DNA of 11,595 nucleotides, from the IMG/VR virus record IMGVR_UViG_2579778753_000002, positions 1 to 11,595 of that record, one strand, 5' to 3'. The stretch comes from a virus (Duplodnaviria; Heunggongvirae; Uroviricota; Caudoviricetes). A program made the translations under genes and the position numbers. Under the pieces are notes generated by a model, which was given only the letters and a program-made list of their open reading frames with translations, searched no databases and was not told where the DNA came from. Position 1 is the stretch's first letter; the number at the start of each line of letters is the position of its first letter. Positions 155-11,106 of the stretch are shown in pieces.

Positions 155-230
155 CCTCAAAAATGACCACACAACTGACCACACATTTCGTTGAAGCCCT
201 ACGAACAACGACGAACAATAACAAACAAAA
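155..230. repeat. Arm-type direct repeat (left), containing tandem TGACCACACA x2 and CGAACAA x2
   Basis: About 95% identical to 11031-11106 (4 differences over about 75 bp). In an excised circle the two copies would flank the core at roughly 60 and 85 bp, as integrase arm sites do in attP. Confidence 0.6.
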
Positions 231-466
231 GGGAAATTTGCTGGCAGTTTTGCTTAACCGTTATCATTTTTCGGCTATCCGCTATGAAGCTGGTGGATGA
301 TCACGGATAATCCGTTATGTGGATCCCCATATCGGCATCAGGCCCACCAGCGTGAAGCGTTTTTCATTTTTCGCGGGTATAAAAAATCGATGGGGCTGGC
401 AGTCCGGAAGACGTCAGGGTACAGAGATTTGACCCGCCCCTCCCTGTGCATGAGCACAATAAGTAA

Positions 467-490
467 CCGAAGGCGGAATTCCGCCCTCGG
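467..490 (-). terminator. Candidate intrinsic terminator for the leftward TerS-like/95-aa operon
   Basis: CCGAAGGCGG-AATT-CCGCCCTCGG: 10-bp GC-rich stem with one mismatch and a 4-nt loop. On the minus strand it is followed by TTACTTATTGT (T-rich). Confidence 0.4.
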
Positions 491-522
491 TGCTCACATA
501 TGAGAAACGATATTTCTTACAC

Positions 523-628
523 CGATACCCTTTATTTGGGTATCGCGAGTAAGCCCCAAAATCTGGGTGTTACTCTTACTACCCAAACTACGGGTAGTTT
601 CATAGTCGAGTTGCAGATCTGCAACTCG
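523..628. repeat. Cluster of three inverted repeats / palindromes in the island's terminal non-coding region
   Basis: 523-545 CGATACCC-tttattt-GGGTATCG (8-bp perfect stem). 585-600 AAACTAC-gg-GTAGTTT. 607-628 CGAGTTGCAGATCTGCAACTCG (perfect 22-bp palindrome centred on AGATCT/GATC). Confidence 0.6.
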
Positions 629-675
629 CCACCAGTTGCTAAGTGCATTTTTGCACTTTCGGTAATATCAACCAG

Positions 676-963
676 TTACCGCCGTAAGTGCTCCGGCTTC
701 CTCCACTGGTAAGTATTTTTCGCGCTCTCCCTCCGTTGTTGAGAACGGCGACGGTATGCCAGCAACTCAAGAACTCTGGTTCGTATGTTGCGCATATCCA
801 CGCCGTTAAGCTCAATACCGTCACGGCGCATTACCTCAGCCACCACACGCGCGTAATTTTCAGCGGTGACTGTATCCGGCTGCGCGGCCTGTTCGTCAGC
901 CAACTGGCTGATTCCACCAGCACAGCGGATTAATCGCAGTATTTCAGATTCGGTCATTATCAT
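676..963 (-). CDS. Hypothetical protein, 95 aa, Arg-rich basic C-terminus; translationally coupled to the upstream TerS-like gene
   Basis: ATG at 963-961 overlaps the TGA of the preceding ORF (ATGA overlap at 960-963). Ends in a basic tail (RRRSQQRRESAKNTYQWRKPEHLRR). No family recognised. Confidence 0.55.
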   Translation of the reverse strand: MIMTESEILRLIRCAGGISQLADEQAAQPDTVTAENYARVVAEVMRRDGIELNGVDMRNIRTRVLELLAYRRRSQQRRESAKNTYQWRKPEHLRR

Positions 964-1445
964 GCCTGTTTTGCGACCTCATTCACTACGTCATTTTTTA
1001 CCATCCGGCTGATAATCTGATTACGCAAATCGTCAATAATTGACTGCACTCTGTTTACTGCCATCGGTTTAAGCCCGGCATCACGTGCCAGAATATTGGG
1101 GAGTTTTGCCAGTTCCTCGCTTACGATTTCCCCCCATATAGCCATCTCTTTTCGCACATCATCGGCGGGTATGAGTTGCGCCGTTTCCTGTTCGAACCTG
1201 AGGCGCTCACGTTCGGACTGATACCAGGCCTTACGGTCATGTGGCTCCATTTCTTCCAGTGATGCCGGAACGGGAAGATCAAGAAAACAGGTCAGAATGT
1301 CAGTCACCCGATAGAGTTTTAGCTTGTCATGCCCTCCGGCTGGCTGGATGTTTTTCAGCCTTGCCGCCGCAGTCTGACGACATATTCCCGCTATCGCCGC
1401 CAGTTGATTAATGTTCAGCATCAGATTTTTCAGTTCTCGATCCAT
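960..1445 (-). CDS. Nu1-like small terminase-type HTH protein (candidate satellite TerS or Rpp-like packaging-redirection protein), about 161 aa
   Basis: The ORF-track start at 1532 is a TTG. I prefer the ATG at 1445-1443, preceded by GGAG. The N-terminus (MDRELKNLMLNINQLAAIAGICRQTAAARLKN...LYRVTDIL) has the layout of the lambda Nu1 winged-HTH DNA-binding domain, followed by a predicted helical region. Confidence 0.6.
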   Translation of the reverse strand: MDRELKNLMLNINQLAAIAGICRQTAAARLKNIQPAGGHDKLKLYRVTDILTCFLDLPVPASLEEMEPHDRKAWYQSERERLRFEQETAQLIPADDVRKEMAIWGEIVSEELAKLPNILARDAGLKPMAVNRVQSIIDDLRNQIISRMVKNDVVNEVAKQA

Positions 1446-1716
1446 ACCCGCTCCAGAATGTTTTAAACATGCATCTTGCGAACAACTTTCAGAAGAGGTC
1501 AAAAAATGCGCTATATGTTGAGCATAAAACAAGCAAAATTAACATGCCAAAAATAAAAATACTTAAAATTCAATACAATAGAAAGATGATGATGACGAAT
1601 GAAAATGCAAAAACTAGCCTTTTTCCGCGCCGCTCCCGCCCCGTGGCAGGCCACCTCACCGGGAGGACCCACCCAAAAAAGGCGACTGTCACTATTGTTT
1701 ATGCTCCATGAGCGAC

Positions 1717-1738
1717 AAAACCGCCCGCAGGCGGTTTT
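1717..1738 (-). terminator. Rho-independent terminator (usable in both directions) after the gpI-like gene
   Basis: AAAA-CCGCC-cgca-GGCGG-TTTT, 18 nt downstream of the gpI-like stop (1756). Confidence 0.7.
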
Positions 1739-1755: not shown

Positions 1756-2397
1756 TCAGCGACCAATCACCACAATCTGGCCGCCATCCCCTTCATCTGC
1801 TGTGCTGATCTCTTGCGAAATCACCCGCGACCCGACGCGCATTTCACCGTACAGAACAGGCACAACATTGCCCTGGGCAACCATGTTATCCAGAGAGGAG
1901 AAATAGGTGTTCTGCTTACCGTTATCCGTGGTGCTGGCTGTTGCTGTGCTGGCTTTCGGTGCCAGCATCTGTGCAACACCACCAAGTGTCATCGCCGCCC
2001 CCATTGAAAAGAGAATGTCACTGAAAGCGATACTGATTCCTGGCATCCAGATTGCCGTAGCAATCAGCGCCGCACCAAGCACCGCCTGAAACACGCCGCC
2101 ACTTTTGGCACCAGCCAGACGCGGTACGATGTGGATCACGGCACCATTTTCCAGCGGTTCATTAAGACGGGCTGATAATTCGTTTTCGCCTGTATCACGC
2201 CCGGCAATACGCACCTGATACCAACCATCGCTCAGTTTCTGACGAAACGCTGGGATCTGCATGGCCAGCGCCCGGATGGCTTCGGCCCCCGTTTTCACAT
2301 GAAGATCGATGCGGCGGCCAAATCGTTGTAAATCCCCGTAAAGGCAGATGCGTGCCATGCCCGGTGACGCCAGAGGGAGTGTGTGCGTCGCTGCCAT
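1756..2397 (-). CDS. Lambda gpI-like tail tip assembly protein, 213 aa
   Basis: ATG start with an AGAGAGG RBS. The protein (MAATHTLPLASPGMARICLYGDLQRFGRRIDL...ADEGDGGQIVVIGR) matches my recollection of lambda tail assembly protein I almost end to end, with a shorter Gly/Ala-rich central region. Recalled, not searched. Confidence 0.65.
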   Translation of the reverse strand: MAATHTLPLASPGMARICLYGDLQRFGRRIDLHVKTGAEAIRALAMQIPAFRQKLSDGWYQVRIAGRDTGENELSARLNEPLENGAVIHIVPRLAGAKSGGVFQAVLGAALIATAIWMPGISIAFSDILFSMGAAMTLGGVAQMLAPKASTATASTTDNGKQNTYFSSLDNMVAQGNVVPVLYGEMRVGSRVISQEISTADEGDGGQIVVIGR

Positions 2398-2486: not shown

Positions 2487-4400
2487 TCATGCTCCATTCG
2501 ATTTCAGCAATCCACGATAATCGAGGGCCGCGACACCTGCATCTATGCGCACCTTCCAGGCGACACCATCAACAGTAAAGCCCACCTGCTCCTCAAGATA
2601 TGGCGTATCCATACCATCAAGATAAGCGACTTCTATTGTGTCCATCCCCTTAGCTGCGGCTACATACCATTCCTTGCTATTGGCCTTATCAAGACGTGGC
2701 TCAACAATTACTTCTGCCATATCTTTCACAACGTTAATGATGCCGGGGTTCTGATTGATAGTACCCTCATCACCAACCGGAAAGACTGATGACGATGACA
2801 GAATGGCGCGACGCGCGGCAGATTCCAGCGCGGCAGGGACCAGAACAAAAGCAGGGGTAATATTCAGTGAGTCGCCGTTAGCATCCTCCTGGAGGCGCAT
2901 CAGCTTACGGGCTTCATCAAGCCCCACCATGTCCATATCCTTCGCAATAAGATTTTTATGATCGGCATGGAATAACGCTTTACCATCCGTAAACTTGCCG
3001 TTGCTGGTTAACAGGAGATAAACCAGATTGCCAACTGTTCTGGCGGCTGCGCGTCCCATCGCCATGGGGATTGTAGTTAACTGGGTCAGGTCATCGTTGA
3101 TAATGGCCTGACGGGTAACGGAAAAAATATTCCCGTACGTGGCCAGCGCAATAGGTACACCTTTATCGCTGGTGGTGATGTATTTATATTCCGCACCTTC
3201 CGGTACTTTATCCAGCTTTGAAAAACCATTCAGACCAACGCGCTTTGCTTCATGAAAGTTTGAAAGCGAACCGGTACGCGTCCATTTCTGGAACGTTTCG
3301 CCGCTGTCCTGCCAGCCTTTCAGTACAGATTTTTCAGCCCCACCAGCCAGAATATGAGAAAAATCACTGCTGCTGTGTGTAAAAGCCGCATTAACAACCT
3401 GCGAGCGATTAATAAAACCACTCACAGTGATACCACGATCAACCAGTGATGCCTGGGCCATTTCAAAAAGGCTCATCATCGCGTAAGGGTTGCCTCGTTC
3501 AGGGCGTTCATACCCAAGACGGGAATAAAGCCCCTGACGAATTGCATCACCTGTTATGTTTCCGTTTCCGGCATAGATATGAGGCGGAGTATTTTTATTG
3601 GATGGCGTGGACTCGCGCCCCAGCTCGTTCAACAGCTTTTCACGGGCCATTTCCGGTGTACATGATGCATCTTCCAGACACGCCATTTTGATCCCGTCGT
3701 AACGACTGCCGAACAGGCTAAACACTTCACTTATTCCATTGATGCGCTTCTGTTCATTACCAGCAATATTTGCCGCTCCCTGTGGCGGTGTAATCATTCC
3801 TTTAATGGTTTCCGGCATATGTAAAAAATCTCCTGTGCGCTTCGATTCAATTCGCGCCATTGCTCTGACGGATGGCAACAATTCATCAGCAAAACCGTGC
3901 TTAAGGCATTCTTTCCCGTCCATCCAGGTTTCATCTTCCAGCATGGCGGTAATTTCCTGTGCTGATTTGCCCGTTTTTCTGGCATAAGCAGGGACTAACA
4001 CGGTTTCCACCTTATCCAGCAAATCAGCATAATCACGCATATCACCAGCATTTCCGCCAGAGATACCCCACGGCTTATGTATCATCATCATGGCGTTTTC
4101 CGGCATCACAACACGATCGCCAGCCATTGCGACCACCGAAGCCATTGAAGCCGCAACACCATCGATATAAACCGTAATGTCTGCCGGATGATTCCGTAGC
4201 AGGTTATAGATGGCGATGCCTTCAAACACATCACCACCTGGTGAATGGATCCTCAGATTGATATGTGAAACATCGCCAAGGGCTTTCAGGTCTTCCGCGA
4301 ACTGCTTTGCAGTAACACCGAAGCCGCCAATCTCCTCATAGATAGATATATCCGCCGCTCCGCGAACATCCGCCGCCTTAATGGTGTACCAGCGATTCAT
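2487..4400 (-). CDS. Fusion of ClpP/S14-type prohead protease (N-terminal), linker/scaffold-like segment and HK97-fold major capsid protein (C-terminal), 637 aa
   Basis: N-terminus has ClpP-like motifs (HSPGGDVFEGIAIYN, GVAASMASVVAMAGD, MMMIHKPWG). The C-terminal 350 aa or so looks like a phage major capsid protein (ITPAFVLVPAALESAARRAI..., FTVDGVAWKVRIDAGVAALDYRG). ATG start with a GGGGGAA RBS. Long ORF with no internal stops. Confidence 0.85.
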   Translation of the reverse strand: MNRWYTIKAADVRGAADISIYEEIGGFGVTAKQFAEDLKALGDVSHINLRIHSPGGDVFEGIAIYNLLRNHPADITVYIDGVAASMASVVAMAGDRVVMPENAMMMIHKPWGISGGNAGDMRDYADLLDKVETVLVPAYARKTGKSAQEITAMLEDETWMDGKECLKHGFADELLPSVRAMARIESKRTGDFLHMPETIKGMITPPQGAANIAGNEQKRINGISEVFSLFGSRYDGIKMACLEDASCTPEMAREKLLNELGRESTPSNKNTPPHIYAGNGNITGDAIRQGLYSRLGYERPERGNPYAMMSLFEMAQASLVDRGITVSGFINRSQVVNAAFTHSSSDFSHILAGGAEKSVLKGWQDSGETFQKWTRTGSLSNFHEAKRVGLNGFSKLDKVPEGAEYKYITTSDKGVPIALATYGNIFSVTRQAIINDDLTQLTTIPMAMGRAAARTVGNLVYLLLTSNGKFTDGKALFHADHKNLIAKDMDMVGLDEARKLMRLQEDANGDSLNITPAFVLVPAALESAARRAILSSSSVFPVGDEGTINQNPGIINVVKDMAEVIVEPRLDKANSKEWYVAAAKGMDTIEVAYLDGMDTPYLEEQVGFTVDGVAWKVRIDAGVAALDYRGLLKSNGA

Positions 4401-4867: not shown

Positions 4868-5090
4868 CTGTTCACCTTTTGATATTTTCTCTTTTAATTC
4901 ATAATGTTAAGGGGTGAACAGTTTCAAAAAAACTATTCACCAACTGTTCACCACTGTTCACCCTTGAAGCTCAATAAACAATCAAAAAGGTGAACAGTGA
5001 ATAGTTTGGTGAACAGTTCATAAATAACTGTTCACCCTATAATATACTGATATAAAAGATATTTATGACAGGGTGAACAGTGGTGAACAG
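4868..5090. repeat. Iteron array (at least 9 copies of GGTGAACAG / CTGTTCACC in both orientations) with an AT-rich stretch: candidate P4-type origin of replication
   Basis: Direct copies at 4913, 4989, 5009, 5072, 5082. Inverted copies at 4868, 4944, 4954, 5029. Degenerate copies at 4933 and 4997. AT-rich 5041-5069. Sits immediately 3' of the alpha-like gene. The motif contains TGTTCACC, which I recall as the P4 alpha-binding type I iteron. Confidence 0.75.
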
Positions 5091-5103
5091 TTATTCCATA
5101 AGT

Positions 5104-6921
5104 TTAATTTTTGCTATCGTCATTAGTGACCGATACACATGATGGCATCCAGTCTTCTGATTCCTCCGTCAGTGTCACGTTTGAACGCAAACCGTGCTTC
5201 GTTTTCCGTTTCATATACTCCCTGCCATATTCCGCCATTGCCCCCGGCATATCTTTACCGAAGCGCGTCAGTGTTACAGGTTTACCAAACCCATGTGCCC
5301 TCATATAAGCCAGATAGGCATGATAGAGATACCTGCGTGGGCTGAATGGCACAATTTCAGCATTACCCACTAACAGGCCATCACACATTACCGACGCCAT
5401 GAGATAGCCGCAGAAGTCCACCAGCGAATCCCCCTCTCGCTTTATCGCCAGTGCTTCTTCTGATTTCTGCTGCTCATATAACAGGCGTCTGGCTTCGTCC
5501 TGGTCAGCAAACCGTGTAAGCAGATGGCGAATCACTACCGCCAGCTCACCTTCTATTTTTTCCGCCAGCATTGGATCACGTTCGTTCTCCGGTACAACTT
5601 CCGAAAAATTGAATATCACCCGACGACGTGAGATCCCCCCGCTGCGGTCACTGAATGACATGGCGTTATTGTTAACCGCCAGCACTACTGCCGGAATACG
5701 CGTTGAGTAGGGGGCTTTGTGTTTCGGGTCAATTGCCACCTTGTCACCGCCTGTAATAGCCTTAATCCCTGCCCCATCACCAGCGTAGCGGGTCATATCC
5801 GGCATGATAATCAGCGAAAAGCCAACCACTAACGCGCGTTCCCTTGCATCTTCCAGCGCCTTCATGCTTGCCGATACTGTGTTGGCCTTACCCGCCAGCA
5901 TGGTGCAAATCTCCGCCATCACGCTTTTACCACTTCCCCCTGGACCTGTTACCTCAATGAATAACTGCCAGTCGTACCGGTTCGCCAGCACCATGAATAA
6001 TGCAGCCAGTACGCGATCCGCCTTGCGGTCATTCTCAGCCACCGAACGGCGTAACCACTTCCAGAAATTCGGCGCATGTGTTGCCAGCATTTCCCCCTCT
6101 GCTGGTGGGCTGAAAGGTAATTCACTGGCAATTAACAACCAGTCGTTTTTGTTATGCTCCCGAAAATTACCTGTTCTGGTATCAAATACCCCGTTACTGA
6201 ATCCAATCAGGTTACGGGCTGTATTCCCCATTACAGGCAAACTTAACTTCATGGTATCGACCGCCGATTTAATGGCGTTCTGCGAATAGCTGATCTCCGC
6301 ATCAATGAAAATCTGCGCCATAGCTCGCTGTAATTCTTTATCCTGTACTGGCTCCCATACAACGCCGTTGTAATGGTGAACAGTGTCAGAGTCAGCATGA
6401 ATCGCCAGTTCACCGCCATAATGTGCCAGGAGAACTTCGCCGCGTTGACTTGCTCCCATCTGGTTAAGCGCCAGTGATGAAGCGTTATCGTCTTTTACCC
6501 GCTCTTTTTTCTTTACAGGCAGTTCAACTACCTTTTTCTTTTCCTCCAGCTCTGCCCGTTCACGTTCCAGATATTCGCGCCAGTTCTCCCGTTTCTGGCT
6601 GTGCATTCCTTCAGGGTAATAATCAGCATCCCTGACACCTGCCGCTGCCAGTTTCTGCCCGATGGTATTAACAAGCCCCGGACGCAATAACCCCGCCTGA
6701 TAGAGACGCACGCGATAGCGTCCGTCCGGTACGATTTGCAGGTTGTCCAGTTCGGCAAGTTGTTGCTCTCCAAGCCAGACAGGAGGCACGTTATCGCCAG
6801 CCAGTCGCCCGTCCTGTTCCTGCCACTGCTTCGCATGTGCCCACGCATTACTACCCGCAAAAATGATGACTTCCGTCATTTTGTCACGCGGCTGGTGTTT
6901 TAAATTTGGCGCTTTTTTCAT
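5104..6921 (-). CDS. P4 alpha-like replication protein (D5_N-type domain plus SF3 helicase with Walker A GPGGSGKS; phage/plasmid primase P4-family C-terminal region)
   Basis: About 605 aa from the ATG at 6921 (GGAG RBS); the ORF track extends to a GTG at 6936. Walker A VTGPGGSGKS, Walker B-like LVVGFSLIIMPD. Adjacent to the iteron array. Confidence 0.85.
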   Translation of the reverse strand: MKKAPNLKHQPRDKMTEVIIFAGSNAWAHAKQWQEQDGRLAGDNVPPVWLGEQQLAELDNLQIVPDGRYRVRLYQAGLLRPGLVNTIGQKLAAAGVRDADYYPEGMHSQKRENWREYLERERAELEEKKKVVELPVKKKERVKDDNASSLALNQMGASQRGEVLLAHYGGELAIHADSDTVHHYNGVVWEPVQDKELQRAMAQIFIDAEISYSQNAIKSAVDTMKLSLPVMGNTARNLIGFSNGVFDTRTGNFREHNKNDWLLIASELPFSPPAEGEMLATHAPNFWKWLRRSVAENDRKADRVLAALFMVLANRYDWQLFIEVTGPGGSGKSVMAEICTMLAGKANTVSASMKALEDARERALVVGFSLIIMPDMTRYAGDGAGIKAITGGDKVAIDPKHKAPYSTRIPAVVLAVNNNAMSFSDRSGGISRRRVIFNFSEVVPENERDPMLAEKIEGELAVVIRHLLTRFADQDEARRLLYEQQKSEEALAIKREGDSLVDFCGYLMASVMCDGLLVGNAEIVPFSPRRYLYHAYLAYMRAHGFGKPVTLTRFGKDMPGAMAEYGREYMKRKTKHGLRSNVTLTEESEDWMPSCVSVTNDDSKN

Positions 6922-7217
6922 TTCTGCTCTCTCCACGCGGCAATCATGTTTTTCAGTTCCTGTAGTTTTTTATCAACATCCATACATGACACATGGTTAT
7001 TTCTGGAAGGCGGGATTTCCCGCCGGAATCTGCAAATAAAGATCTCCACGTTCAGCGAACTATGAAATGAATAGCCATCACGAATAAAATACACACGGTC
7101 AAACATCAGTTCTTTTACCGTTACTCTGTTACCGTTCTTATCCAGATAAATAGCGCCGGGGATAATTTTGGGGTGTGCATAACCGCTGGCAGTCAAGCCA
7201 GATATATATGTTCTCAT
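6918..7217 (-). CDS. Hypothetical protein (99 aa), translationally coupled to the alpha-like gene
   Basis: ATG start. Its TGA overlaps the ATG of the alpha-like gene (ATGA at 6918-6921). No family recognised. Confidence 0.55.
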   Translation of the reverse strand: MRTYISGLTASGYAHPKIIPGAIYLDKNGNRVTVKELMFDRVYFIRDGYSFHSSLNVEIFICRFRREIPPSRNNHVSCMDVDKKLQELKNMIAAWREQK

Positions 7218-7223
7218 GATTAT

Positions 7224-7544
7224 TTATCCCCGATTTGAATCAGTATTCGCTTTCTTTATGGCATTTAATGCATCTGTGGCATTTTCAATGGTGCACCGTA
7301 ACGAAATATCAAACTGCCCAAGCATTGCCAGTAACAAACCGATATTACCCATATCAATGCGCATGGCCTTTTCGTCATAGTCCTCATTTTCTGACGCATG
7401 CCACATCAGGCTACCAATTGACGCAATACCCATTGATATATTGTCAGTAGCCCCATCCGCAGCGGAATAAACCTTTTTAGCAATATCATGCTCACAGTTA
7501 AAATGCGGATTAATCAGGTACTGGTAATTGGTCATGTCAGGCAT
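7224..7544 (-). CDS. Hypothetical acidic protein (106 aa)
   Basis: ATG at 7544 preceded by AGGGGGGG. Ends 7 nt before the next gene in the same operon. No family recognised. Confidence 0.55.
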   Translation of the reverse strand: MPDMTNYQYLINPHFNCEHDIAKKVYSAADGATDNISMGIASIGSLMWHASENEDYDEKAMRIDMGNIGLLLAMLGQFDISLRCTIENATDALNAIKKANTDSNRG

Positions 7545-7740
7545 GGCACCCCCCCTGACGAATACGGGCGGCGAATACCATCACGCAGCCAGCCGGGGAT
7601 TGCTGGCGTGCTTCCTGTTCGCTGGTGGCCACGATGGTAATCACGCGCGGTTGTGCCGTGCTCAGGGCGATAAAACGCCAGATGTATTTATTCAGGTTGT
7701 GCGAGTCCCGCCCTTGCGGGTGTGTGGTATGATTTCTCAT
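7537..7740 (-). CDS. Possible small protein (67 aa), first gene of the replication operon
   Basis: ATG at 7740 with GAGG 7 nt upstream. Its stop overlaps the 106-aa start by 8 nt (ATGCCTGA). It is the C-terminal segment of a long, otherwise implausible 362-aa ORF. Confidence 0.35.
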   Translation of the reverse strand: MRNHTTHPQGRDSHNLNKYIWRFIALSTAQPRVITIVATSEQEARQQSPAGCVMVFAARIRQGGCHA

Positions 7741-7838
7741 AGCTGCCTCGATAATCTTGCTATCGTTGGTGGTTAGAAGCCCCGTTACTGCTCCTACAGT
7801 GCGGGGTTTCGTCGTTTCTGCACCTTGCATTAACAAGG

Positions 7839-7916
7839 TGTAAGTAACTTTATTTATAGGTGGCTTACATGTCAATGCTTTTATGTAAGACTTTTTATGT
7901 GTATATTGTCTTACAC
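7839..7916. promoter_or_regulatory. Divergent promoter/operator region with four GTAAG/CTTAC half-sites
   Basis: Half-sites at 7840, 7864, 7885, 7910, including CTTACAT-N12-ATGTAAG. Minus-strand promoter candidate: -35 TTGACA (7875-7870), 17-bp spacer, -10 TAAAGT (7852-7847). Plus-strand candidate -10 TATATT (7902-7907). Confidence 0.45.
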
Positions 7917-7936
7917 TTTCATTGAGAGGATTACAG

Positions 7937-8242
7937 ATGGCTACAGGTTCAAAAAACGCAAAATCACAATCACTGACAGCTCGGATCCCGCATGATGTTA
8001 TTGAAGGCATGGAATCCGTAAAACTGGACGGTGAAAGCAACGCCGGATTCATAGTAACCGCCATGCGCGGTGAAATCGCCCGCCGCCAGGCAGAAGGAAG
8101 CGGAGAAAACCTCCTGGTTTCTTCGCTCGATGCCCTAGCGCAGGTGGAAAAAATCGGAGTCAAAGCCGCCGAGGAGATCGGGCAACTCGTCACCGTCGCG
8201 CGTGAAGAACTCCAGCGACGCAAGGTCAAAGAGCAGGAATAG
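7937..8242 (+). CDS. Ribbon-helix-helix-like putative DNA-binding regulator (101 aa)
   Basis: ATG at 7937 with GAGAGGA 6 nt upstream (the ORF track's 7922 start is a TTG). N-terminal beta-strand-plus-helix pattern (SLTARIPHDVIEGMESVKL). Transcribed opposite to the rest of the island. Confidence 0.55.
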   Translation: MATGSKNAKSQSLTARIPHDVIEGMESVKLDGESNAGFIVTAMRGEIARRQAEGSGENLLVSSLDALAQVEKIGVKAAEEIGQLVTVAREELQRRKVKEQE

Positions 8243-8299
8243 CCACTATCAGCGCCATAGTTTGAGGAACGCAGGCGCATTGCTTTACAGGACAGCACC

Positions 8300-8479
8300 A
8301 TGAGCGACACAGAATCAACCAAAACACCATCACCAACTCGTAAGAGACGACGCAAAAATATAGCGCATGAACATGAATCAGAAAGATTCGCACCTTGTTC
8401 GTTTGCTCTTGAGAAATTCCTTAAAGAGCACAGGAAAAAGCTCTCGTTGCAAACCTTGGAACGAACCAAATCTGACTGA
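8300..8479 (+). CDS. Possible small basic protein (59 aa), downstream of the RHH-like gene
   Basis: ATG at 8300, in-frame TGA at 8477-8479, just below the 60-aa track cutoff. Lys/Arg-rich N-terminus (TRKRRRKNIAHEHE). Followed by a strong terminator. Confidence 0.35.
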   Translation: MSDTESTKTPSPTRKRRRKNIAHEHESERFAPCSFALEKFLKEHRKKLSLQTLERTKSD

Positions 8480-8546
8480 TCACATTGCCCACCAGCCGCA
8501 AATGTGGCATTGTTGGCGATGCGTTCAAGTTTAGTGTGTATCCATT

Positions 8547-8575
8547 GGCGACCGCCCCCGGTCGCCTTTGTTTTA
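8547..8575 (+). terminator. Rho-independent terminator of the rightward RHH-like operon
   Basis: GGCGACCG-cccc-CGGTCGCC (8-bp perfect stem) followed by TTTGTTTTAT. Confidence 0.8.
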
Positions 8576-8593
8576 TATGTCATATGCTCCCCT

Positions 8594-8818
8594 TTACGCT
8601 GCCTTACCTGAATTAACGCGGTCACGGCTTTGCACCCAGTCCATAACTTCGGAAAGCAACCAGCCTACAGAACGCCCCCCAAGATTACGGCGAGACGGAA
8701 AGCCCCCTTTCTTCTCCAGTTCGTAGCGTGTAGTACGGCTGACGCCTGTTAACTTACGACATTCATCCTCACGAATTACGCGATCTGTTAGTGATTGAAA
8801 TTGTGTATTTTGATTCAT
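8594..8818 (-). CDS. alpA: AlpA-family prophage transcriptional regulator (74 aa)
   Basis: ATG with GAGGGTG RBS. HTH region (CRKLTGVSRTTRYELEKKGGFPSRRNLGGRSVGW) matches the AlpA/MerR-like fold found next to P4-type integrases. Confidence 0.85.
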   Translation of the reverse strand: MNQNTQFQSLTDRVIREDECRKLTGVSRTTRYELEKKGGFPSRRNLGGRSVGWLLSEVMDWVQSRDRVNSGKAA

Positions 8819-8921: not shown

Positions 8922-9776
8922 TTAATTTTCATTAGATAACATTTTTCTTATTTTTTCTAAAGAATCGCTGCGCATTATTTTTTCTAAGAAGGGTTTTACA
9001 GTCTGAGCAATAGCAAAGGTGTCCTTTTCACCATCAGGATACAAAGATACGGCAAGCACCCCTAATGAAATTTTTCTATCTGTAGACAACTCCCAAGATA
9101 ATAAGTCAATTAATGGGATTATCTTATAATCAATAATTTTACGTCGTATGCTCTCCCAACTTCCTGCAATTGGTTTGTCTGGCTCAACAATTGAAAGTTC
9201 ACTACGCCATTTTGGTAATAGTTTTGTAAACGCTTCAATCAACTCATCATCTCTGTTATGTAGTAAGTCAACAGAAACAAGCATATTATCTAATGTATCA
9301 GAAAGGAGATTCACTGGTTCACGCATCACAGCCCAAAACATCCCATTATCTTCTGATATTAAACTTCCAACCATCTCATTATCTATGATGATTGGTTTAT
9401 CCTTCCAATATCCTCTTTCCGCAGTCAGTTTATTAATCATTGATATATCAAACCTTGTTACAGGTTTAATTCCATCATCATAACTTAGCTCAATTAACTT
9501 CGGTTGCACTTTATGGTCATATTCTTTTTGTTTATCACAAAACCAATCGTCTTCTTTCAGCTCTCCAAATGGATCCCCGTAATTATTATGCAACGGGTAT
9601 TCAGCACCAAACATAAATCCATATTCAGGCATCTCAGAATGTTTCATCGTTAAATCATCTTGTCGCCAATATAATTGGCGAAATAGATCTTTATCCGACA
9701 AGTTTTCTAGGCAATCATATTTGCCTAAATCAAATGACTTTGGTAAATCTTTTTTACTATTTACTTTTTTCGTCAT
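8922..9776 (-). CDS. Hypothetical protein (284 aa), AT-rich cargo gene between int and alpA
   Basis: Uninterrupted 855-nt ORF. Its ATG overlaps the int TGA (ATGA at 9773-9776). Visibly more AT-rich than the flanking int and alpA. No recognisable catalytic motif. Confidence 0.75.
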   Translation of the reverse strand: MTKKVNSKKDLPKSFDLGKYDCLENLSDKDLFRQLYWRQDDLTMKHSEMPEYGFMFGAEYPLHNNYGDPFGELKEDDWFCDKQKEYDHKVQPKLIELSYDDGIKPVTRFDISMINKLTAERGYWKDKPIIIDNEMVGSLISEDNGMFWAVMREPVNLLSDTLDNMLVSVDLLHNRDDELIEAFTKLLPKWRSELSIVEPDKPIAGSWESIRRKIIDYKIIPLIDLLSWELSTDRKISLGVLAVSLYPDGEKDTFAIAQTVKPFLEKIMRSDSLEKIRKMLSNEN

Positions 9777-10993
9777 TGTATCCCTCTCAATATCACAATA
9801 TTTTCATTATATCCTGCAATCATATCAAGACGCTCAACCCATAGATTCAGTGCGTCCCGTTTCGCCTGCAAATAGCGTGAATGGTTATAGGTTTTTTGCT
9901 GACCTGGCATCTGATGCGCTGTGATGTGCTCCACGATATGCGGATCGACACCTAAATCATTCAGCATAGTTGTAAACGTGTGTCGGAAATCATGCAGCGT
10001 CCAGTGTTCCTGCTTAAGCCGCTTATGCGCATTTCGTCCATATTGCGCCACCGTGGTATCTTTTTTCAGTTCGCCGAGTAATAACCCAGTGTGTGCGTTT
10101 TGCTCCACCAGCTTCTGAATGAACGGCAAAATACCATCAGGAATAGGTCGGAATATTGTTACCTTCGTTTTGCTGTGCTCTTTTGGCACTGTCCACAACA
10201 TTTCTTTCAGATCCCATTCTTTGATCTCTGAAAGTCTGATCTCTGCCGTTCTGCACCCGAACACAATTAACAAGCGCATTAACGCACTGTAATAGGGAGC
10301 GAACACATCACCATCAATAGCGCGTAGAATTTCTTTTAGTTCGCTGTTGCTGTGCACTCTCTCGCGGATTTCTGCTCTCTTACCCACATCAGTAACGATC
10401 AAATCGTCCAGGGCGTTGCTAAACGCGTAGCGCCGCCTGCGGCAAAACTTTAGCGCCTGTTTGCATGTCTGCATGACATGGCCCGCTGCTACTGGTGCTT
10501 TTTTTCGTACGCGGTCAAAACATGCGATCCACTGCCTTGTATCACACTTATCAAGGGGAATTGCCCCAATATGGCAAATGATGTGCTTATCCATACGCTG
10601 CACCAGCTTTATGTAATCTTTGCGGTTATCCTTCGCGTATTCCTCCAGCCAGTAGTTAATCGCTTCCTTCACCGTAACGGGTTTTAGTGCTTCCTGTACT
10701 GTGGCGCACAACTCATAACGGGGGTTTTTACCCTCAGCCAGCCATGCCCGGCACAGTGTGCGTTTTTCCCTTGCGGCTTTCAGCGACAATTCAGGGTAAG
10801 CCCCCAGCTTTAACCGCTCTGCGGCAACCTCACGGCCTCCCGTTCGGTACCGGAAATACCAGGTTAATTTGCCGCCCTTTGAGTGTTTAATCTCCAGCCC
10901 GCCCCCGTCGGAGTAAAAACGCTCTTTTTCTGCCTGGACAGCCGCCAATTTTTTTAACGTCGAATCGCTCAGTTTGTTTAGTGCTTTTCCCAC
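9773..10993 (-). CDS. int: P4-family tyrosine integrase (406 aa)
   Basis: GTG start with GAGGA RBS. N-terminal arm-binding-type region (GGLEIKHSKGGKLTWYFRYR...GAYPELSLKAAREKR). C-terminal catalytic region with HDFRHTF and a downstream Tyr. Adjacent to the att site. Confidence 0.9.
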   Translation of the reverse strand: MGKALNKLSDSTLKKLAAVQAEKERFYSDGGGLEIKHSKGGKLTWYFRYRTGGREVAAERLKLGAYPELSLKAAREKRTLCRAWLAEGKNPRYELCATVQEALKPVTVKEAINYWLEEYAKDNRKDYIKLVQRMDKHIICHIGAIPLDKCDTRQWIACFDRVRKKAPVAAGHVMQTCKQALKFCRRRRYAFSNALDDLIVTDVGKRAEIRERVHSNSELKEILRAIDGDVFAPYYSALMRLLIVFGCRTAEIRLSEIKEWDLKEMLWTVPKEHSKTKVTIFRPIPDGILPFIQKLVEQNAHTGLLLGELKKDTTVAQYGRNAHKRLKQEHWTLHDFRHTFTTMLNDLGVDPHIVEHITAHQMPGQQKTYNHSRYLQAKRDALNLWVERLDMIAGYNENIVILRGIQ

Positions 10994-11030
10994 TATCAGA
11001 TCCTCTTTTCAGTCCTCCAGCCTCAAAAAA

Positions 11031-11106
11031 CTGACCACACAACTGACCACACATTTTGTTGAAGCTCTACGAACAACGACGAACAACAACAAACAATAAA
11101 ACAGGA
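11031..11106. repeat. Arm-type direct repeat (right), partner of 155-230
   Basis: Same tandem TGACCACACA and CGAACAA sub-repeats. Lies in the int upstream region, about 40 bp from the int start. Confidence 0.6.

Follow-up and report, generated by a model that had tools for sequence, protein, structure and literature searches.

A DUF1441-class small terminase behind a phage-type cos site in an Escherichia coli satellite probably serves to load satellite DNA with a helper phage's packaging motor

The window that we analysed, 11,595 nucleotides of the IMG/VR record IMGVR_UViG_2579778753_000002, carries an Escherichia coli chromosomal island of about 10.9 kb that is a satellite of the phage-inducible chromosomal island (PICI) type, inserted between thiM and rcnR. 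At one end of this island lie a phage-type packaging site (cos), a gene for a 161-aa protein that we call TerS(sat) and a gene for a 95-aa protein, and we conclude that the packaging site and this hybrid of a phage small terminase (TerS) probably serve to load satellite DNA with the packaging motor of a helper phage. In the form that we favour and consider reasonably likely, TerS(sat) gives the island its own packaging specificity, and the helper's large terminase (TerL) cuts at a cosN that island and helper share. Homology, gene position, the cos site, the mosaic structure of the gene and its distribution in the population are the observations behind this reading, from which we infer DNA binding, recruitment of TerL and interference with the helper. 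The features on which the argument depends are listed here by window position; locus handles with L and H numbers are ours.

1717-1738, minus strand: GC-rich hairpin with a T run (AAAACCGCCTGCGGGCGGTTTT), read from the sequence, which ends the upstream gene just before cosQ
1617-1670, minus strand: cosQ-cosN block of 54 bp, 94-98% identical in every phage and satellite examined
1641-1630, minus strand: predicted 12-nt cohesive end GGGCGGGAGCGG
1446-1616, minus strand: cosB-equivalent spacer between cosN and the start of terS(sat)
960-1445, minus strand: terS(sat), 161 aa, with an ATG start and GGAG 8 nt upstream
1191-1445, minus strand: codons 1-85 of terS(sat), the predicted winged helix-turn-helix DNA-binding half, 98.0% identical in nucleotides to prophage L015 and 72% to satellite L018
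960-1145, minus strand: codons 101-161 of terS(sat), the satellite-specific C-terminal helical half, 57.5% identical in nucleotides to prophage versions and 99.5-100% to satellites
676-963, minus strand: 95-aa gene (93 aa from the ATG at 957), which matches phrog_1561 end to end (E 3.3e-51)
229-675, minus strand: terminal non-coding block between the 95-aa gene and the attachment site (att)

Judged by homology and position, the 161-aa open reading frame (ORF) is a genuine small terminase of the DUF1441 class. Its product matches PF07278 (DUF1441) with 125.3 bits, against a gathering cut-off of 35.1 (E 2.4e-36), and phrog_141, described as 'terminase small subunit' (E 9.6e-57). In tblastn comparisons with the TerS annotated in mEp460, phi458, PhiR55_1 and related coliphages, residues 1-150 show 66-71% identity, and identity to TerS of Gifsy-2 and Stx2a phages is 44-47%. 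In those phages and prophages, terS sits after the lysis cassette and between cos and TerL, and it is followed by a GpA-type TerL with a stop/start overlap, a small head-tail protein, the portal protein and a fusion of ClpP protease and major capsid protein (ClpP/MCP). The island encodes no large terminase, either after the 161-aa ORF, as the initial annotation had pointed out, or elsewhere. That annotation had described the 161-aa and 95-aa ORFs as a coupled pair, and both indeed lie on the minus strand and belong to conserved families rather than being chance ORFs: the TGA of terS(sat) (962-960) overlaps the ATG of the 95-aa ORF (963-961) as ATGA, and RefSeq, in its annotation of a 98%-identical twin island that we used for comparison, starts the small gene at position 957, also an ATG, so that 2 nt separate it from terS.

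We examined the predicted fold of TerS(sat) with AlphaFold2 (AF2). The model, built from a 36-sequence alignment (mean predicted local distance difference test score 78), has a winged helix-turn-helix (wHTH) at residues 9-55, which comprises a strand at 9-11, helices at 12-19 and 23-32, a hairpin at 37-46 and a helix at 47-55, and this domain is followed by three long helices. The N-terminal layout had been called Nu1-like, and hhalign of the DUF1441 profile with lambda Nu1 places residues 9-55 on residues 2-51 in the correct wHTH register, in a weak match (E 0.0021, probability 13%). The protein has no match to the Nu1 family PF07471, and sequence searches of the PDB with the protein and with the family profile returned neither Nu1 nor RppC. 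The best local Foldseek matches, none of them significant, were wHTH domains of the MerR type, namely BldC (TM-score 0.64-0.67) and CbpM, and MerR-type domains are the same structural neighbours that have been reported for RppC.

The C-terminal end sets the satellite proteins apart from those of phages, as satellite proteins end in ...RMVKNDVVNEVAKQA and phage proteins in ...EAGADDEEELQQEE. In a survey of the 120 closest database relatives, in which the full-length phage-type members span many enterobacterial genera, the last 16 residues carry a net charge of -3 to -10 in full-length phage-type members, compared with 0 or -1 in the satellite class and -1 in the window protein. An acidic tail is thus present in the full-length phage-type DUF1441 members surveyed, and only the satellite class is without one. 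The central helix, RKAWYQSERERL.F.QE, is invariant in all DUF1441 TerS members examined, whether from phages or satellites, and helices 2-3 of TerS(sat) conserve the family-invariant residues L112, P116, R121, D122, V133, Q134 and D138.

The predicted cos site is directly upstream of the terS(sat) gene, rather than in the palindrome cluster downstream where the initial annotation had looked for it. Read on the minus strand from 1670 to 1617, the block has the sequence GGGTCCTCCCGGTGAGGTGGCCTGCCACG GGGCGGGAGCGG CGCGGAAAAAGGC, and it aligns base for base with the left end of lambda and with the lambda-type cos of the island EcCICFT073. In this alignment the lambda cohesive end, GGGCGGCGACCT, falls on GGGCGGGAGCGG, and both the window and the lambda-type cos have a cosQ-like GGGTCCT..CCGGTG before the cohesive end and CGCGG after it. 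A lambda-like cosQ/cosN pattern has a single match in the window (1625-1670, minus strand), where none is expected by chance. TerS(sat) is the first gene downstream of cosQ-cosN-cosB, and cosB abuts its ATG at 1445.

We compared the window segment by segment with a prophage of the same cosB type (L015) and with a related satellite (L018), which revealed that terS(sat) is a mosaic. Nucleotide identities of the window are as follows.

cosQ/cosN: 98.1% to prophage L015, 94.4% to satellite L018
cosB: 97.7% to prophage L015, 73% to satellite L018
terS nt 1-255: 98.0% to prophage L015, 72% to satellite L018
terS nt 256-300: 77.8% to prophage L015, 100% to satellite L018
terS nt 301-486: 57.5% to prophage L015, 100% to satellite L018
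downstream of terS: unrelated in prophage L015, 94.5% to satellite L018 (95-aa gene)

To place this pattern in context, we analysed 93 loci, made up of 80 IMG/VR contigs together with prophages and satellites fetched by protein identity. The type of TerS tail and the gene that follows were linked throughout: TerL lies downstream of an acidic tail in 49/49 loci, and the 95-aa gene lies downstream of a satellite-type tail in 35/35, with 6 more lost at contig ends and 3 further loci, two of them with a satellite-variant tail, unclassifiable for the downstream gene. The HTH types, on the other hand, are common to phages and satellites. Across the 93 loci, cosB falls into discrete types that co-vary with the HTH type of TerS; the median cosB identity is 95-97% within a type, with 46 satellite-phage pairs at 96.7%, and 71% between types. 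The breakpoints fall on the two stretches that every member conserves, namely the cosQ/cosN block and the invariant central helix, which suggests that cosB and the HTH would move together as a cassette by homologous recombination. We also observed a few lambdoid prophages (L015-L017, H157 and H158) in which the type-A cosB/HTH cassette, the type found in the window and otherwise typical of satellites, is fused to a normal phage TerS C-terminus followed by TerL; such prophages could have arisen by transfer from satellite to phage or the reverse, in what could be an arms race over cos identity.

We next consider how common each type is. Among 5,426 complete E. coli genomes, in which counts were taken from BLAST identity and coverage bands and are approximate, the satellite form of terS is present with an intact ORF in 195 (about 3.6%). 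In 187 of these 195 the gene is at least 95% identical to the window over its whole length, and cos, terS(sat) and the 95-aa gene occur together in 187 genomes. A phage-type DUF1441 terS is found in about 1,363 genomes (about 25%), nearly all of it type B or type C: type B (phi458) at 95% identity or more accounts for about 909 genomes and type C (PhiR55_1) at 99% or more for 542. Only two records, at 99% identity or more, showed a type-A HTH joined to a phage C-terminus, and nearly all other high-identity matches to the type-A query are partial and attributable to satellites. The cosB of the window is 71-73% identical to the common prophage types B and C, compared with 98% for the rare type-A prophages. 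These counts indicate that the cosB/HTH type of the island is close to private to satellites. That satellites often have this type and prophages seldom do suggests that the specificity of packaging is private as well.

The initial annotation had likened the pair to the Rpp proteins, with which PICIs redirect a helper's terminase, and the comparison holds for position and setting rather than for sequence. We recovered the end of the experimentally studied EcCICFT073 from the CFT073 chromosome (locus L025), where a terminator hairpin is followed by a lambda-type cos (about 2528-2580), after about 100 bp a gene for a 144-aa wHTH protein (2660-3094), a gene for a 93-aa protein (3374-3655) and phoQ. 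The DNA-contact residues of RppC are strongly conserved across RppA, RppB and RppC, and RppA has 144 residues (PMC6739421). Because residues R21, T22, T23, R25, W27 and K29 of the 144-aa protein match the listed RppC contacts, and because of its length, we identify it as RppA. Window and EcCICFT073 thus have the same layout, which runs from a terminator through cos, a gap of about 100-190 bp, a wHTH gene, a gene of 93-95 aa and a conserved non-coding block to att. In both cases, and as described for Rpp (PMC6739421, PMC9026076), the wHTH protein is the first encoded after the island cos and is followed by the 93-95-aa gene, with no TerL of the island's own; TerS(sat) and Rpp also both have a helical C-terminal part that is without the C-terminal end of phage TerS.

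What stands of the proposed Rpp-type redirection, therefore, is a TerS homologue in a satellite without TerL, in the slot of rppA, and with a cosB/HTH type that is rare in prophages. What does not stand is relatedness to Rpp. BLASTP of the 161-aa protein against RppA gave E 0.67, hhalign gave E 0.037 at a probability of 1.4% and covered the HTH only, and a Foldseek comparison for RppA/RppC gave E 0.39 (6hn7_A), so that, by these searches, TerS(sat) is not an Rpp family member. The two designs also diverge in different places. The DNA-binding domain of Rpp has diverged (its identity to lambda TerS is 25%), and Rpp has dimerisation helices of its own and no TerL-binding end; it pairs its DNA-binding domain with that of the helper TerS on a cosB unlike the helper's, and it also blocks helper packaging (PMC6739421). 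Rpp has thus diverged in its DNA-binding domain and in cosB, whereas TerS(sat) has diverged in its C-terminal half and keeps a DNA-binding half and cosB that are 98% identical to those of some prophages. The helpers differ as well, as Rpp works with lambda and phi80, whereas the helper family of TerS(sat) would be phages with DUF1441-class TerS, a GpA-type TerL and the cosN GGGCGGGAGCGG.

TerS(sat) is homologous to the DUF1441-class phage TerS proteins (of mEp460, phi458, PhiR55_1, Gifsy-2 and Stx2a phages), with which it has in common the Pfam family, the length, the position behind cos, an N-terminal half that is identical or near-identical, and the invariant central helix RKAWYQSERERL.F. 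It differs from them in that the phage gene is followed by TerL and terS(sat) by the 95-aa gene, and in that its C-terminal 60 residues have diverged (57.5% in nucleotides), with the phage acidic tail replaced by KNDVVNEVAKQA.

Other satellites provide further points of comparison. The TerS of Staphylococcus aureus pathogenicity islands (SaPIs) differs from phage TerS in DNA recognition, whereas TerS(sat) has a phage-like N-terminal half and a private C-terminus, and its HTH/cosB type is nonetheless nearly satellite-specific in the population. SaPI packaging is also of the pac, or headful, kind, whereas that of the island is of the cos kind, and no homologue of Ppi was identified in the island. 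The likeness lies in a satellite's own TerS and packaging site that are used with the helper's TerL, as summarised for SaPI TerS-S in a preprint (bioRxiv 10.1101/2022.09.08.507074). The satellite P4, cos-SaPIs and the pac mimicry of PLE elements carry the helper's cos or pac, and in the island cosQ/cosN is likewise essentially that of the helper family; those elements, however, need no TerS of their own for recognition, whereas the island keeps one, with a cosB type mostly absent from prophages. Capsid-forming PICIs (cf-PICIs) of the EcCIEDL933 type have in common with the island a terminal gene of 93-97 aa, part of the terminal non-coding block and a capsid protein of their own, but their genes for the head and for packaging are complete (portal, HNH, TerS and TerL), whereas the island has only the ClpP/MCP fusion and TerS. 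Redirection of a helper's terminase by a satellite is already known, and what is new is the version with a DUF1441-type TerS(sat); in the searchable literature we found no paper that links PICIs with mEp460-type phages or describes a satellite DUF1441 TerS, and DUF1441 appears there in three unrelated phage papers.

We propose the following mechanism. Once the island is induced and replicated, the N-terminal wHTH of TerS(sat) would bind the island cosB, which would position the GpA-type TerL of the helper on the adjacent cosN/cosQ, a site that the island has in common with its helper family of mEp460-, phi458- and PhiR55_1-like lambdoid phages. The helper machinery would then cleave and package island concatemers, either in place of helper DNA or along with it, with the satellite-specific C-terminal half coupling TerS(sat) to that machinery. 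Coupling might occur by co-assembly with the helper TerS, as for Rpp, or by direct binding of TerL, as for SaPI TerS. We slightly favour co-assembly, in view of the missing acidic tail and of a position like that of Rpp; TerL may instead be bound directly, given that the invariant residues of helices 2-3 are conserved. Four island units amount to 43.5 kb (4 x 10,868 bp), and helper genomes measure 42.9-44.9 kb, a similarity that makes the packaging of concatemers in helper-size heads plausible. Such packaging has been reported for other E. coli PICIs (bioRxiv 10.1101/2022.09.08.507074; PMC10111431). Alternatively, small heads may be built from the island's own capsid fusion.

Several points weigh against this mechanism. 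A few prophages have the same cosB/HTH type, and with those as helpers the site would not be private; the genome counts, as said, are approximate. Types A and B differ little in the recognition helix, RQTAAARL[KQ]N, and a difference in specificity from type-B helpers is assumed from the divergence of cosB (73% identity), in which we looked for R-type repeats and detected none. Neither Nu1 nor RppC was matched significantly when the full-length model was used for fold searches. Finally, with the acidic tail lost and the C-terminal half deeply diverged, the ability of TerS(sat) to engage TerL is in question.

The main rival combines mimicry of cos with interference. The helper TerS would itself recognise the helper-type cos of the island, as with P4 and cos-SaPIs, and the tail-less TerS(sat) would act as a dominant-negative decoy, on cosB or within helper TerS assemblies, that lowers the yield of the helper. 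The shared cosQ/cosN, the identity of cosB and HTH to those of some prophages, the lost acidic tail and the precedent of Rpp, which likewise blocks helper packaging (PMC6739421), all fit such a role. However, the rarity of the island's cosB type among prophages would leave most potential helpers blind to the site without TerS(sat), and a decoy with the specificity of the island's own cosB would block packaging of the island too. We consider this rival unlikely, and private specificity through TerS(sat) remains the reading that we prefer.

In its original form, the proposal that the 161-aa and 95-aa proteins are a dedicated Rpp-like pair, with cos in the downstream palindrome cluster, now appears improbable. 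The translational coupling through the ATGA overlap and a gene order like that of rppA and the 93-aa gene in EcCICFT073 are in its favour. It is opposed by the cos homologue upstream at 1617-1670, by searches that found no sequence similarity to Rpp, and by the wider occurrence of the 95-aa family and the palindrome block, which are also present in islands with HK97-type TerS/TerL, Nu1-type or Rpp modules.

Conservation argues against both of the remaining alternatives. One is that terS(sat) is a decaying remnant of captured phage head genes without a current packaging function, which would agree with the recently captured tail gene and the pseudogene fragment that the island also contains and with a report that, in an E. 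coli model, transfer does not depend on the PICI capsid genes (PMC10111431, citing Fillol-Salom 2018). A remnant is nevertheless very improbable: 195 genomes hold the ORF intact, conservation extends to the cos block, satellites that vary in other parts agree to 99.5-100% in the C-terminal half, and the 95-aa gene accompanies the satellite type without exception. The least probable alternative is a MerR/Xis-like regulator of transcription or recombination that merely resembles TerS, as its MerR-type wHTH and its best local structural neighbours, BldC and CbpM, might suggest, since the homology to proteins encoded between cos and TerL in phages is full-length and the HTH co-varies with cosB.

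The 95-aa protein had been introduced as the partner of TerS(sat) with a basic tail. The tail, RRRSQQRRESAKNTYQWRKPEHLRR, is there, and it ends in a conserved motif, Y-x-W-[KR]-K-P-E-x-L-R-R. A dedicated pairing did not hold up, as other satellites have members of the family (862 clusters at 90% identity, nearly all from enterobacteria) behind TerL, a Nu1-family gene or rppA. The gene closes three kinds of island: cf-PICI-like islands, where it comes immediately behind TerL; lambda-cos islands with E/D-like capsid genes, where it follows a Nu1-family gene; and DUF1441-type islands, where it follows terS(sat). Homologues that end the late operon are present at the loci L006-L009 and L010-L013. 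In EcCICFT073, the 93-aa gene after rppA is 72% identical to the 95-aa ORF of the window (E 8e-48; L025:3374-3655). By this distribution, the 95-aa gene is a general terminal gene of the late operons of enterobacterial PICIs and cf-PICIs, not a dedicated partner of TerS.

Searches with the 95-aa protein gave few further clues. AF2 predicts three helices and the basic tail, with no significant fold match in the PDB; no Pfam family was found, tblastn found no match in 50,697 phage records, PADLOC returned only a marginal match to BrxA (E 0.0068), and a representative-library search returned only close relatives and repeat-protein noise. We also considered that the protein mimics the N-terminus of TerL, which we rejected when BLASTP against the mEp460 TerL found nothing. 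A cf-PICI preprint describes poor transfer of a mutant in the EcCIEDL933 'hypothetical gene 1792' of the packaging module, a gene that is possibly the 97-aa homologue. When EcCICFT073 genes after ori were cloned and assayed, c1503 was the only one reported to block lambda (PMC6739421); if the 93-aa gene was one of them, it would not be an interference factor by itself.

Beyond the 95-aa gene, the terminal non-coding block contains the palindromes to which the initial annotation had drawn attention (466-491, 526-596 and 607-628). They exist, but they are not cos, given that the single cosQ/cosN match lies upstream of terS(sat) at 1625-1670. The terminal block is conserved as well as structured. 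Its identity is 90-93% between islands that differ in their packaging module, its predicted RNA fold has a minimum free energy of -164.5 compared with -119 +/- 6.5 for shuffles (z = -7.0), and it has no Rfam match. It ends in a segment with inverted arms, CGCTGGTGG / CCACCAGC, that is present even in cf-PICI-like islands. The block could be a structured RNA, a set of stacked terminators or a set of arm sites for Int/Xis.

The rest of the island has the layout of a canonical Gram-negative PICI, with att repeats, int, alpA and primase/replication genes in one direction and then a late or packaging zone. All island genes are on the minus strand, and scans of the window with Rfam and for tRNAs were empty. 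Its other features are as follows.

159-228: left copy of the att direct repeat, 70 nt, 94% identical to the right copy
11027-11096: right copy of the att direct repeat, adjoining int; repeat spacing 10,868 bp
9773-10993, minus strand: integrase gene
8922-9776, minus strand: DUF6387 gene, between int and alpA
8594-8818, minus strand: gene for an AlpA-family regulator
7537-8625, minus strand: mechanically listed ORF of 362 aa
minus strand, between alpA and the primase gene in gene order: gene for a DUF4222 protein
5104-6936, minus strand: D5-type primase gene
minus strand, between the primase gene and the ClpP/MCP fusion: gene for a 69-aa protein
2487-4400, minus strand: ClpP-protease/major-capsid fusion, 637 aa (PF00574 + PF25209)
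1756-2397, minus strand: homologue of the lambda tail-assembly protein I, 88.7% identical to coliphage I proteins

The 362-aa ORF is probably spurious, as the RefSeq twin island shows only small genes there (for an Icd-like inhibitor and, on the plus strand, a YlcI/YnfO-family protein). The DUF6387 gene has no PADLOC match, and RefSeq annotates a HEPN-domain gene in the same region of closely related islands; the region may be, as this suggests, a variable slot for accessory or defence genes. PICI replication origins usually lie in the gap 3' of the primase gene. In the window, this 500-bp gap, directly 3' of the primase gene's end at 5104 and before the 69-aa gene, holds three copies of a 21-mer containing GGTGAACAGTT, spaced 95 and 74 bp apart (4912-5101).

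Upstream of cos, the ClpP/MCP fusion is a constant companion of terS(sat) in the late module, as it precedes cos-terS(sat) in every one of the satellites L018-L024. It is 57% identical in amino acids to the prophage version (675 aa), a divergence comparable in depth to that of the C-terminal half of TerS, and it may build heads of satellite size. Since none of the sister satellites L018-L024 has the tail-I gene, it looks like a recent capture; what is left of the tail gene before it, K, extends up to about 2470 and is annotated as a pseudogene in the RefSeq twin. We considered tail-assembly interference (Tai) for this gene and set it aside, as the Tai paper gives no tie to lambda I-like proteins. 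The spacer between the tail-I gene and the 161-aa ORF is 310 bp, and a hairpin comparable to the one at its start lies ahead of cos in EcCICFT073 and in satellites L018-L021. The late module, consisting of the ClpP/MCP fusion, cos, terS(sat) and the 93-95-aa gene, is kept across islands with different replication modules and integration sites. Sister satellites L022-L024 retain SSB, ClpP/MCP, cos, terS(sat) and a 94-aa gene, have an AAA_25 helicase-type replication gene in place of the D5-type primase and integrate elsewhere, so that the late module moves between replication backbones.

Satellites spread virulence, resistance and defence genes, and the manner in which they capture a helper's packaging motor decides which phages move them. 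For TerS-related satellite proteins, two solutions have been characterised: the SaPI TerS, which recognises a private packaging site, and Rpp, a diverged mimic of the DNA-binding domain that binds the helper TerS. To these the island would add a third, for non-lambda helpers, in which a cosB/HTH cassette of phage grade is joined to a C-terminal domain found only in satellites, and the small terminal gene is flagged here in three satellite families. More tentatively, and as a combination that we would not yet expect to hold in full, a tail-less TerS with a private C-terminal domain may pirate cos terminases in this third way by co-assembling with or replacing the helper TerS, with cosB and the HTH swapped as a unit between cosQ/cosN and the central helix, and with the terminal gene of 93-97 aa acting as a universal transfer factor of enterobacterial satellites. 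In the natural chimeras, the half of a cos-type TerS that recognises DNA is set apart from the half that couples to the motor, which makes the poorly known TerS-TerL interface of DUF1441 phages testable. If the cassette is indeed swapped, satellites, and occasionally phages, could change their packaging specificity in a single step, which would amount to an arms race over cos identity.

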